NCBI RefSeq assembly: GCF_003334255.1
Contig: NZ_QOWU01000064.1
From: Escherichia coli
GTDB taxonomy: Bacteria > Pseudomonadota > Gammaproteobacteria > Enterobacterales > Enterobacteriaceae
DNA length: 26,066 bases
Reading direction: 5' to 3' (one strand)
In this document: positions 17,382 through 18,419 of the stretch, one piece after another
Layout: every line of letters starts with the position of its first letter
Position numbering within the stretch: the stretch's first letter is position 1
Program-made: the position numbers and the translations under genes
Notes under the pieces: generated by a model
The model's database searches: none
What the model saw: only the letters and a program-made list of their open reading frames with translations
Told to the model about the DNA's origin: nothing

Positions 17382-18419
17382 TCAGGCTTTATTCTGACGC
17401 CACCATTCACCAAGCAAAACGCCGGTTGCGACAGAGATATTCAGCCCGGCAACGTTGCCCGTACCGTCAATCTTCACGCGCAGATCGTTCGGATCGCGTG
17501 CGGCATCCGGTAACCCTTCATATTCCTGACCCAGCACCAGTACCATTTTCGCTGGCAGACTAGTTTTGAACAGCGGTTTACCCTGCTCGCTGGAAGTGGT
17601 CACTACGGTGTAACCTGCCTGACGGAAATCATCCAGCACGTTAACAATGTTGTCGCCAGTAATCGGCTGAACGTGCTCTGCGCCGCCTTCTGCGGTACGG
17701 ATAGCCGCCCCCGACTCCAGCAGTGCCGCATCCTGCACCACGACACCTTTCACGCCGAAGTGCGCGCAGCTGCGCATCATGCCACCCAGGTTATGCGGGT
17801 TAGATTCGTTTTCCAGTGCCAGAACGCAATCCTGCGCGCCTGCCTGGCTTACCCACTGCTGCACGGTTGTACCGTTACGCTTTTTGATCAAGAAGCAAAC
17901 GCCGCCGTGATGTTCCGTGCCTGACGCTTTTGTCAATTCCGCTTCATCCACCACATGGTACGCTTTGCGGTTTGCTGCCATCCAGCGCAAAGCTTCTTTA
18001 AAACGCGGCGTTACACTCTGGATAAACCAGGCGCGAACAATCGCTTCCGGACGGCTCTGGAAAAGTGCCTGACATGCATTTTCGCCGTAGACGCGGGTTT
18101 CTTCCGCACGCTGACGACGCAACACTTCCGGATCAATAAAACTTTTACCACTGATGCCACCGTGATCGGCCTTTTCCGGCGTCTCATCACCCGGCGCGCG
18201 GGAAACCGTGCGCCACGGCGAATCTTCCCACTTGCGGTCACGGGGCTGACTCTGTTTGTCATCGCGGGCGGGGCGACGGCCACCGTCAGCACGAGATTTT
18301 CCTGGACGCCCGCCCCCTTTCCCGGTACGCGGGTTGTGGGTACGTTTATCAGAATCATCATCACTGCGGACATACATCACTTTGACCTTGCCGCTTTTAC
18401 CTTTCATTTCATCGTTCAT
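17382..18419 (-). CDS. yfiF: SpoU/TrmH-family RNA 2'-O-methyltransferase-like protein YfiF
   Basis: 345 aa from [26 protein letters not shown]...; ~100-aa Lys/Arg/Gly/Asp-rich low-complexity N-terminus followed by a SpoU-like domain. The ORF-track start at 18494 adds 25 aa. Confidence 0.85.

Follow-up and report, generated by a model that had tools for sequence, protein, structure and literature searches.

The Escherichia coli protein YfiF combines an RlmB-like two-domain core (residues 107-345) with a charged N-terminal tail that is predicted to be disordered and carries conserved sequence islands. The explanation that best accounts for the data, in which we place about equal measures of confidence and doubt, is that YfiF, a gammaproteobacterial paralogue of the methyltransferase that forms Gm2251 in 23S rRNA (RlmB), is tethered by its tail and acts as an RlmB-like dimer on large RNA, where it would most likely still carry out SAM-dependent 2'-O-methylation. 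The gene was analysed within a window of 26,066 nt (the whole stretch of DNA under study, from contig NZ_QOWU01000064.1), and the features described below are collected in Table 1.

Table 1. Features of the yfiF locus and of its product, with positions in the window.
Feature	Position	Strand	Basis and remarks
yfiF coding sequence	17382..18419	-	ORF and translation; RefSeq E. coli annotation; NCBIfam NF008117
Shine-Dalgarno GGAG of yfiF	18426..18429	-	6 nt 5' of the ATG; direct sequence reading
N-terminal tail, residues 1-104	18108..18419	-	Composition; AF2; no Pfam domain
Tail island 1, residues 8-18 (11 residues)	18366..18398	-	Orthologue conservation
Tail island 2 (SPWRT), residues 66-76, Trp-containing short linear motif	18192..18224	-	Orthologue conservation
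Tail island 3 and junction helix, residues 85-106 (22 residues)	18102..18167	-	Orthologue conservation; AF2
L30e-like substrate-binding domain (SpoU_sub_bind), residues 110-181	17877..18092	-	Pfam PF08032, E 1.2e-14
SPOUT catalytic domain (SpoU_methylase), residues 199-336	17412..17825	-	Pfam PF00588, E 1.6e-31
SpoU motif 1, N207-R216 (10 residues)	17772..17801	-	N210 = TrmH Asn35; R216 = catalytic Arg41
SpoU motif 2, GQEYEG, G297-G302	17514..17531	-	E299 = TrmH Glu124
SpoU motif 3, I317-S329 (13 residues)	17433..17471	-	Non-canonical D318 and G325
17-nt perfect palindrome TAATATGTAACATATTA	18555..18571		8+8 arms, TAATATGT-A-ACATATTA; some 55 nt 5' of the trxC start codon (ATG)
7-bp inverted repeat in the yfiF 5' leader	18437..18453	-	Perfect 7+7, CTGCGCG-AAG-CGCGCAG; RNA CUGCGCG-CUU-CGCGCAG
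Strong hairpin between convergent ung and yfiF	17349..17374		RNA fold -22.6 kcal/mol, z -4.15

The yfiF locus and its flanking elements

The yfiF open reading frame comprises 346 codons (345 amino acids plus the stop) on the minus strand and starts with an ATG at position 18419. At the DNA level it matches many E. coli chromosomes with 100% identity; there it is annotated as yfiF, "tRNA/rRNA methyltransferase", and flanked by ung and trxC, convergent with the former and divergent from the latter. The trxC-yfiF-ung synteny is kept in Salmonella, Enterobacter, and Citrobacter, and is absent in Zophobihabitans, Lonepinella, and two further genomes, among which no recurring neighbour was found. 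A misannotated start as the source of the tail could be ruled out, since conservation among orthologues begins at Met1, the Shine-Dalgarno is well placed and invariant across four genera, and the 5' leader shows almost no variation among these genera as far as the ATG; the longer ORF with a TTG start, which reaches 18494, is mechanical.

The intergenic region between yfiF and trxC (18420-18625) carries two perfect inverted repeats, as the first-pass annotation of this DNA had pointed out together with the divergent arrangement of the two genes. Both repeats are conserved in Salmonella, Enterobacter, and Citrobacter, and the 15-nt core of the palindrome (AATATGTTACATATT) is invariant in E. coli and these three genera. 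When the region was shuffled with preservation of dinucleotides, arms of at least 8 appeared in 21 of 2000 shuffles, and at least two repeats with arms of at least 7 in 15 of 2000. A structured RNA element in the yfiF leader was rejected, because the leader fold was no more stable than shuffles (z -0.42), no compensatory change or covariation in the inverted repeat was seen across genera, and no Rfam family was found in the spacer. On the opposite side of the gene, the hairpin between ung and yfiF, with a stability matched by none of 200 shuffles, is probably a bidirectional terminator.

An RlmB-like core distinct from RlmB and TrmH

The core consists of an L30e-like SpoU_sub_bind domain followed by a SpoU_methylase domain. 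By sequence, it matches RlmB 1GZ0 best among PDB entries (E 2.7e-19), it was modelled by AlphaFold2 (AF2) with pLDDT >90, and its top Foldseek matches were all SpoU-class structures, the best one being again 1GZ0 (TMt 0.69-0.76 over full-length chains). Pfam, NCBIfam, PDB sequence, and Foldseek matches all bear out the SpoU/TrmH-class assignment made earlier from the sequence, and the modelled core is a member of this SPOUT alpha/beta fold. Over residues 1-345 (model positions 1-344), the protein scored 667.6 bits with the NCBIfam model NF008117 (YfiF, "tRNA/rRNA methyltransferase"), well above its cutoff of 267, whereas it reached only 40 bits with the TrmH model (cutoff 227) and fell short of the RlmB equivalogs TIGR00186 (117.8 vs 160.15 bits) and NF008386 (92 vs 366 bits). 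The named taxa found to carry YfiF relatives in cluster look-ups were all Gammaproteobacteria, and the relatives from Pasteurellaceae lie slightly under the NF008117 cutoff (252 vs 267 bits).

RlmB (YjfH, the E. coli 23S Gm2251 2'-O-methyltransferase) displays the same succession of L30e-like and SPOUT domains, is 26-27% identical to YfiF over about 240 residues, and has in common with it the N..R of motif 1, the Glu of motif 2, and the Asn of motif 3. In contrast to YfiF, it has no N-terminal tail, carries VHQG in place of HHGG in the N-terminal domain, and reads IPMAG..SSLN instead of IDGTG..AGLN in motif 3. The HHGG motif is specific to the YfiF family, H170 being present in 125 and H171 in 126 of 128 aligned sequences. 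TrmH (SpoU, tRNA Gm18) shares motifs 1-3 with YfiF but lacks both the L30e-like domain and the tail. The SPOUT clade of YfiF also includes the mitochondrial RlmB-clade rRNA 2'-O-methyltransferases MRM1/Pet56 and MRM3 (RNMTL1), with a sequence identity to YfiF of only about 16%; a dimer of MRM3 has been seen on assembly intermediates of the large ribosomal subunit (LSU), with its chains (7OI6 and 9HCD) among the fold matches of YfiF. Unlike YfiF, MRM1 and MRM3 are eukaryotic organellar enzymes with defined targets (P-loop and A-loop G), and their N-terminal extension is in part a targeting peptide.

With RlmB as the closest characterised homologue, YfiF might be taken for a redundant back-up enzyme for Gm2251, or else for the tRNA m2A37 enzyme TrmG, and both identities can be regarded as essentially refuted. 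The m2A37 modification is made by RlmN, and the active site of YfiF holds the residues of a 2'-O-methyltransferase, not those of C-methylation. The TrmG proposal was once made from map position, as cited in PMC1829167. In the literature, rlmB alone is reported as essential for Gm2251 formation (Lovgren and Wikstrom 2001), so that YfiF is no substitute for RlmB, and its scores far under the RlmB equivalog cutoffs likewise speak against a back-up role.

Retained catalytic residues and an altered motif 3

Motif 1 is well preserved in the family, with N210 and R216 each present in 126 of 128 aligned sequences, and E. coli YfiF has an intact motif 2 (G-x-E-x-x-G). Together with E299 and N327, these residues correspond to Asn35, Arg41, Glu124, and Asn152 of TrmH, the equivalence within motif 3 (Ser150, Asn152) being deduced from motif spacing. 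E. coli YfiF has all four, as do nearly all of the 128 aligned sequences, and they are almost invariant in 122 enterobacterial-type sequences; their TrmH equivalents are required for activity (PMC5372735). Because this Asn/Arg/Glu/Asn set for SpoU catalysis has been retained, methyl transfer from SAM to a ribose 2'-OH would most likely be retained as well, presumably at an undetected conditional or substoichiometric site.

Motif 3, on the other hand, deviates from the I-P-x-x-G...S-L-N pattern, since Escherichia YfiF keeps N327 but has Asp318 where the pattern has Pro, and Gly325 where it has Ser. Pro occupies position 318 in 99 of the 128 aligned sequences, and in none of 122 enterobacterial-type sequences, while Ser is found at position 325 in 117 of 128, Gly being limited to the Escherichia lineage and a few scattered others. 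Pro at 318 is carried by the family and by RlmB, and Ser at 325 by the family, RlmB, and TrmH. Both Gly325, at the position of TrmH Ser150, and Asp318, in place of a near-universal SpoU Pro, count against the preferred explanation. Substitution of Ser150 in TrmH nearly abolishes activity (PMC5372735), and the altered motif 3 suggests that any methyl-transfer activity of the Escherichia protein is weak. Moreover, the relatives from Zophobihabitans (Orbaceae) and Lonepinella (Pasteurellaceae) show a deletion or degeneration of motif 2 and retain the tail junction and the L30e-like domain; thus, the conserved function of the lineage may not be catalysis. Taken with the motif 3 changes, this loss raises the possibility of weak or absent catalysis.

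These deviations are among the arguments for a rather unlikely alternative, namely that YfiF is effectively a pseudoenzyme serving as an RNA-binding scaffold, chaperone, or ribosome-assembly/dormancy factor without methyl transfer, by analogy with the SPOUT proteins that have a structural role in assembly intermediates of the mitoribosome large subunit. The Foldseek matches of YfiF include SPOUT chains in such intermediates from human, mouse, and trypanosome, the tail islands are conserved about as much as the core (see below), and E. coli rRNA has no orphan Nm site. The near-invariance of N210, R216, E299, and N327 across 122 sequences argues against this alternative, its simplest explanation being selection for catalysis, although residues of the Arg41 type also bind RNA phosphate. 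Furthermore, none of the substitutions known so far at the Ser150 position of SpoU enzymes is to Gly, and the orthology of the Pasteurellaceae sequences is weakened by their sub-cutoff score.

An N-terminal tail with predicted disorder and conserved islands

The tail (residues 1-104) contains 11 K, 15 R, 13 D, 5 E, 13 G, 9 S, and 8 P. The first-pass annotation had described an extension dominated by K/R/G/D/S/P, and these residues indeed make up 66% of it. Its basic character was confirmed as regards net charge (+8) and pI (10.1, compared with 6.1 for the core), but not in the sense of a purely basic sequence: with 25% K/R and 17% D/E (42% charged residues), the tail is a net-basic polyampholyte. 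Similarly, the label of low complexity is appropriate in part only, since three conserved islands account for about a third of the tail.

Disorder of this extension of about 100 residues, also anticipated, was supported by two AlphaFold2 runs with different alignments, in both of which residues 1-92/93 had pLDDT <50 and lacked secondary structure. The GRAVY index of the tail is -1.72, its mean hydropathy of 0.31 lies below the boundary of 0.44 set by the Uversky charge-hydropathy rule, and Pfam detected no domain within residues 1-109. A folded N-terminal domain was ruled out by the two models and the Pfam result. Being highly charged, low in hydropathy, and without a predicted fold, the tail can be classed as intrinsically disordered, and its RNA binding is putative. 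A junction helix is predicted from residue 97 onwards, ending at residue 106 in one of the models and at residue 122 in the second.

Within island 1, Y16 is invariant among 56 orthologues, at least 90% of which also share K8, K11, V12, V14, M15, V17, and R18; Orbaceae-like sequences have KPTVFY in its place. The same level of conservation (at least 90% of orthologues) is reached by S67, P68, W69, and T71 in island 2 and by D85, G91, K92, D96, P97, E98, and R101-R104 in island 3. The mean frequency of the top residue is 0.78-0.79 in islands 1 and 3, compared with 0.77 in the core. Across 60 family tails, 17 PW dipeptides were counted, whereas 5.3 were expected and no more than 13 arose in any of 2000 shuffles. 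No tandem repeats were found in the tail-coding DNA, and DDRKR repeat expansions are present in Enterobacter and Klebsiella orthologues. Charged low-complexity extensions are confined to the N-terminus in 56 of 126 family representatives and to the C-terminus in 11, and 5 have them at both termini, a distribution that fits a generic RNA-affinity appendage gained repeatedly. The islands, the PW enrichment, and the family-wide charged extensions argue, at the sequence level, that the tail is functional rather than junk. The interpretation of the tail is already known, the tail having been published in 2007, with Tkaczuk et al. as prior work; the islands, the occurrence of charged tails at either terminus, the Gly and Asp changes in motif 3, and the loss of motif 2 in relatives are additions of the present analysis.

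The C-terminal tails of the DEAD-box helicases SrmB, DeaD, and RhlE and the extensions of ribosomal proteins are disordered and K/R-rich, and provide unspecific affinity for structured RNA beside a specific core. By analogy, the YfiF tail may work like these charged extensions of RNA-remodelling proteins, to which it has no sequence homology and from which it differs in being a polyampholyte with conserved SPW and KVKVMYVR motifs. In the explanation that we favour, the charged tail would raise affinity as a flexible electrostatic tether, with specific contacts supplied by the SPW and KVKVMYVR motifs, and YfiF would act as an RlmB-like dimer on a large structured RNA, for which the rRNA of ribosomal particles or of their precursors is the most probable candidate.

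RNA partners and candidate functions

As already stated in the first-pass annotation, YfiF has no established RNA target: the searchable literature assigned it no substrate and contained no report of SAM binding or methyl transfer by the protein. Thus, neither of the two outcomes that had been named as contradicting the earlier reading, a defined substrate and a folded N-terminus, was found. No YfiF-dependent modification has ever been reported, and the known 23S rRNA ribose methylations of E. coli are all assigned (Gm2251 to RlmB, Cm2498 to RlmM, and Um2552 to RlmE), leaving no orphan; both facts count against the preferred explanation. To our knowledge, each ribose methylation site in E. coli 16S rRNA and tRNA also has an assigned enzyme, and YfiF and LasT are the last substrate-less SPOUT-class predicted RNA methyltransferases of this bacterium.

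The CLIP experiment suggested in the annotation had already been carried out in 2024, when OOPS/iCLIP revealed that YfiF binds rRNA, tRNA, CsrB/C, and its own mRNA in vivo, with additional peaks on arrS and chiX and with RNA binding that varies with growth phase (PMC11066096). In 23S rRNA, the iCLIP motif AACCTTTACT occurs in exact form at about nt 2070-2079, adjoining m7G2069. By the coordinates in Dataset EV5, iCLIP peaks fall approximately within nt 2053-2132 of 23S rRNA and nt 960-996 of 16S rRNA. Nevertheless, signal on rRNA and tRNA is the expectation for any binder of abundant RNA, and the STREME motif also fits peaks in csrB, valV, valW, and rrsD (PMC11066096), so that the targets of YfiF are not sharply defined. 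YfiF co-purifies with ribosomal proteins and rRNA-modifying enzymes (PMC3384335) and is enriched with RNase E-associated large particles (PMC13106914). A yfiF knockout grows slowly (PMC11066096), and in a Dub-seq screen a yfiF-trxC fragment pair conferred a fitness gain on potassium acetate (PMC6338753).

The peaks on csrB/C, arrS, chiX, and yfiF mRNA and their growth-phase dependence could also be read as those of a regulatory methyltransferase or binder of sRNAs (CsrB/C, ArrS, ChiX) and of its own mRNA, involved in stationary-phase or acid-stress control and not acting on ribosomes. The potassium acetate phenotype, the near-invariant 5' leader in four genera, and the 7-bp inverted repeat beside the Shine-Dalgarno would agree with such a role, which is nonetheless improbable, given that the leader hairpin has shuffle-level stability without covariation, unspecific electrostatic binding by the tail may underlie the sRNA crosslinks, E. 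coli is not known to modify its sRNAs, and rRNA is the target of all the closest relatives with known function.

Another unlikely possibility is that the enterobacterial/Orbales/Pasteurellales branch of YfiF is losing its enzymatic role and becoming a non-catalytic RNA chaperone or ribosome-assembly/dormancy factor, which would make it a bacterial SPOUT pseudoenzyme. The conserved function would then reside in the L30e-like domain and the tail, with SPW and KVKVMYVR docking on a specific partner, for example rRNA, a ribosomal protein, or the RNase E/RNase R machinery. Such a transition, if true, would explain the growth phenotype of the knockout despite the fact that no YfiF-dependent methylation has been found.

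Implications

The slow growth of the knockout and the restriction of YfiF to Gammaproteobacteria offer a possible rationale for considering it as a drug target (PMC11066096). Resolving the function of YfiF could bring to light an RNA modification that is conditional or substoichiometric, perhaps in domain V of rRNA or in regulatory sRNAs. Alternatively, it could show a bacterial methyltransferase fold that has been re-used as a non-catalytic RNA-binding factor.

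Domain architecture and family assignment of YfiF

Membership of YfiF in the SpoU family, as proposed in the first-pass annotation, was corroborated at several levels. Pfam places an L30e-like SpoU_sub_bind domain at residues 110-181 and SpoU_methylase at residues 199-336, with no Pfam domain in residues 1-109, and the NCBIfam equivalog NF008117 ('tRNA/rRNA methyltransferase') matches at 667.6 bits (cutoff 267). The closest solved structure by sequence is that of RlmB, the 23S rRNA Gm2251 2'-O-methyltransferase (1GZ0, E 2.7e-19, YfiF residues 108-342), and RlmB is also the closest fold of the AlphaFold2 model, followed by the rRNA 2'-O-methyltransferases YsgA, RlmR, TsnR/NshR and AviRb and, further on, by SPOUT chains on mitoribosomal large-subunit assembly intermediates. 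Scores with both NCBIfam RlmB models were well under their cutoffs.

Searching 1.84 billion cluster representatives gave 355 clusters at E <1e-30. Out of 10 representatives scanned, 7 were over the NF008117 cutoff, 3 were just under it, and none reached the RlmB cutoff. All homologues with an organism name are gammaproteobacterial (Sodalis, Symbiopectobacterium, Plesiomonas, Brenneria, Biostraticola, Zophobihabitans, Lonepinella, Corallincola, Permianibacter, Arenimonas, Stenotrophomonas). Tkaczuk et al. (2007; PMC1829167) described YfiF as an RlmB paralogue originating from a duplication within Gammaproteobacteria, with all 2'-O-methyltransferase residues conserved, and treated the discarded TrmG proposal. 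The N-terminal tail had likewise been published by 2007. That YfiF acts as an RlmB back-up or as TrmG is essentially excluded.

Retained and altered catalytic residues

Mutagenesis of TrmH, a SpoU tRNA methyltransferase, from T. thermophilus showed that Asn35, Arg41 (the catalytic centre), Glu124, Ser150 and Asn152 are each required for activity (Hori, 2017; PMC5372735). With residue equivalence set by motif spacing, the YfiF counterparts are N210, R216, E299, G325 and N327, and four of the five are retained in E. coli YfiF and in nearly all family members. RlmB and 117 of the 128 aligned sequences carry Ser at position 325; the Escherichia lineage and a few scattered others carry Gly, the surrounding segment reading AGLNI in Escherichia vs ESLNV in Citrobacter, Salmonella and Enterobacter. 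The 'IP' proline of motif 3 (I317-S329) is kept in RlmB and in 99 of 128 aligned sequences; E. coli has Asp318, and Pro occurs at this position in none of 122 enterobacterial-type sequences. Motif 2 (G297-G302) is lost in relatives from Zophobihabitans (Orbaceae) and Lonepinella (Pasteurellaceae), where the site reads either FQQ, three residues being deleted, or LANGW. In both, the L30e-like domain and the junction between tail and core are retained, and the Orbaceae relative also retains the first two conserved islands of the tail. Judged from sequence, these motif changes would fit a catalytic activity that has weakened or disappeared in the enterobacterial, Orbales and Pasteurellales branch.

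All three ribose methylations of 23S rRNA have assigned enzymes and, to our knowledge, so do all 16S and tRNA ribose-methylation sites of E. coli. The four retained catalytic residues speak for methyltransferase activity; the lack of any unassigned Nm site, the motif 3 changes confined to Escherichia and the disappearance of motif 2 from sister orders speak for activity that is weak or absent. An enzyme with an undetected target is about as likely as not, and a pseudoenzyme is less likely.

A charged, predicted disordered tail with conserved islands

The N-terminal tail (residues 1-104) contains 25% K/R, 17% D/E, 12.5% G, 9% S and 8% P, with a net charge of +8, a pI of 10.1 and a GRAVY of -1.72, the pI of the core (residues 107-345) being 6.1. 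The earlier description of this tail as basic holds for its net charge and pI, but with 42% of its residues charged it is a net-basic polyampholyte and not uniformly basic, and the term low-complexity applies only in part, since three conserved islands make up about a third of the tail. Arithmetic from composition places it with disordered sequences relative to the charge-hydropathy boundary. In two AlphaFold2 runs, based on a 24-sequence family alignment and a 56-sequence orthologue alignment, residues 1-92/93 had pLDDT <50 and no secondary structure, and a helix beginning at residue 97 runs into the confident core. These predictions support the proposed N-terminal disorder, and neither run shows a folded N-terminal domain.

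The islands were delimited in 56 aligned orthologues, whose named members include Enterobacterales and one Orbaceae species, at a threshold of at least 90% conservation. Island 1 (residues 8-18) comprises K8, K11, V12, V14, M15, V17 and R18 together with an invariant Y16; island 2 (residues 66-76, SPWRT) comprises S67, P68, W69 and T71; and island 3 (residues 85-106), which leads into the first helix, comprises D85, G91, K92, D96, P97, E98 and R101-R104. Sequence between islands is variable and repeat-expanded, as in the DDRKR units of Enterobacter and Klebsiella. The PW dipeptide occurs 17 times in 60 family tails vs 5.3 expected (highest of 2000 shuffles, 13), an enrichment inflated by kinship among the sequences, and V-W-R-P is a second recurring form.

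In 56 of the 126 representatives whose core is complete, the N-terminus is extended by 50 residues or more (maximum 364); a charged low-complexity extension was found at the C-terminus only in 11, at both termini in 5 and at neither in 54. A few representatives (P0213, P0215, P0244) have a more hydrophobic, seemingly folded N-terminal region with DAERxLWxxLR that replaces or precedes the charged tail and could stem from fusion of a small domain or from merging of gene calls. Database 'YfiF' entries P0121 and P0124 start with the translation of an out-of-frame ORF (18011-18373, minus strand) fused to the YfiF frame; such entries have the appearance of frameshifts in the assembly or gene call, located in G-rich tail-coding DNA, and not of true isoforms.

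Genomic setting and the yfiF-trxC intergenic region

The window is an E. coli chromosome segment, 100% identical to many strains and found in all 5426 complete genomes searched. From RefSeq annotation of the corresponding DNA and Rfam matches at the two ends, the order is rnc leader region, rpoE, nadB, trmN, srmB, grcA, ung, yfiF, trxC, tapT, patZ, pssA, kgtP and 5S rRNA start. The interval first assigned to yfiF coincides exactly with its coding sequence, with GGAG 6 nt 5' of the ATG; the gene is convergent with ung and, as described, divergent from trxC.

Features of the yfiF region and the surrounding segment
Feature	Coordinates	Strand	Remarks
ohsC sRNA	411-487		Rfam gathering-score match
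rncO leader	3900-4114		Rfam gathering-score match
AsrC, antisense to rseC	6897-7728		Rfam gathering-score match
ES036/CssrF sRNA, downstream of srmB	14195-14237		Rfam gathering-score match
ung/yfiF hairpin	17349-17374		11 bp, within 47-nt gap
yfiF coding sequence	17382-18419	minus	345 codons + stop, ATG at 18419
Inverted repeat CTGCGCG-AAG-CGCGCAG	18437-18453		7 bp, GC-rich; yfiF leader, adjoining SD
Perfect palindrome TAATATGTAACATATTA	18555-18571		17 nt, TAATATGT-A-ACATATTA; ~55 nt upstream of trxC ATG
trxC	18626-19045	plus	Divergent neighbour of yfiF
5S rRNA gene start	25963-26066		Rfam gathering-score match

Four RNA modification or remodelling genes, trmN (tRNA m6A37), srmB, yfiF and tapT (tRNA acp3U47), lie within 8 kb (11918-19812). 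SrmB is a DEAD-box helicase acting in 50S assembly. This linkage is lost outside Enterobacteriaceae, and the clustering is probably a coincidence. The strong hairpin between ung and yfiF (-22.6 kcal/mol, z -4.15) is probably a bidirectional terminator, with weak U-tracts on either side.

Both perfect palindromes reported for the yfiF-trxC spacer were recovered; both are rarer than by chance, and the spacer matches no Rfam family. E. coli, Salmonella, Enterobacter and Citrobacter all share the 15-nt core AATATGTTACATATT of the trxC-proximal palindrome without change but differ in the flanking bases, and this palindrome is likely a regulatory or promoter element of trxC. Given its sequence and the OxyR regulation of trxC, it may overlap the -10/start region of the promoter. 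On the yfiF side, the ~50 nt 5' of the ATG (18420-18470, minus strand) are nearly invariant in the four genera, exceeding parts of the coding region in conservation. The leader inverted repeat is of ordinary stability (z -0.42) and exhibits no compensatory change, the sole substitution (Salmonella) disrupting a pair. Speculatively, leader conservation may be linked to binding of YfiF to its own mRNA. In Dub-seq experiments, fragments carrying yfiF and trxC together raised fitness on potassium acetate by more than the summed effects of each gene alone; the authors suspected that the intergenic region between the two genes contributes (PMC6338753).

RNA association and proposed role of YfiF

Sergiev et al. 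(2012; PMC3384335) listed YfiF as co-purifying with ribosomal proteins and with enzymes that modify rRNA, and named it as a candidate biogenesis factor. More recently, it was among the proteins enriched with RNase E-associated particles in crosslinking SEC-MS (2026; PMC13106914). The CLIP experiment suggested in the first-pass annotation was already published in 2024: OOPS/iCLIP revealed growth phase-dependent RNA binding, with crosslinks to rRNA, tRNA, csrB/C, arrS, chiX and yfiF mRNA, and the yfiF growth defect was the strongest among the unannotated RNA-binding proteins tested (PMC11066096). Its authors hypothesized an rRNA/tRNA methyltransferase under ncRNA regulation (PMC11066096). An sRNA-directed regulatory role of YfiF is improbable. 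The top iCLIP motif, AACCTTTACT, has one exact match in the portion of the 23S gene examined, at ~nt 2070-2079 (by arithmetic from the annotated 3' end), directly 3' of m7G2069. None of the literature found that mentions yfiF assigns a substrate, in agreement with the earlier statement that its RNA target is not established.

The best supported reading is that of an RlmB-like RNA-binding SPOUT protein whose target is large, structured RNA, in all probability that of ribosomal particles or precursors. The disordered charged tail would increase affinity as a tether, with specific contacts made by its conserved motifs. The initial observation on yfiF is accurate and its interpretation supported, but both have been in print since 2007. 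New here are the three tail motifs, the finding that family members may bear a tail at one end or the other, the substitutions of Gly for Ser and Asp for Pro specific to Escherichia, and the absence of motif 2 from the Orbaceae and Pasteurellaceae relatives.
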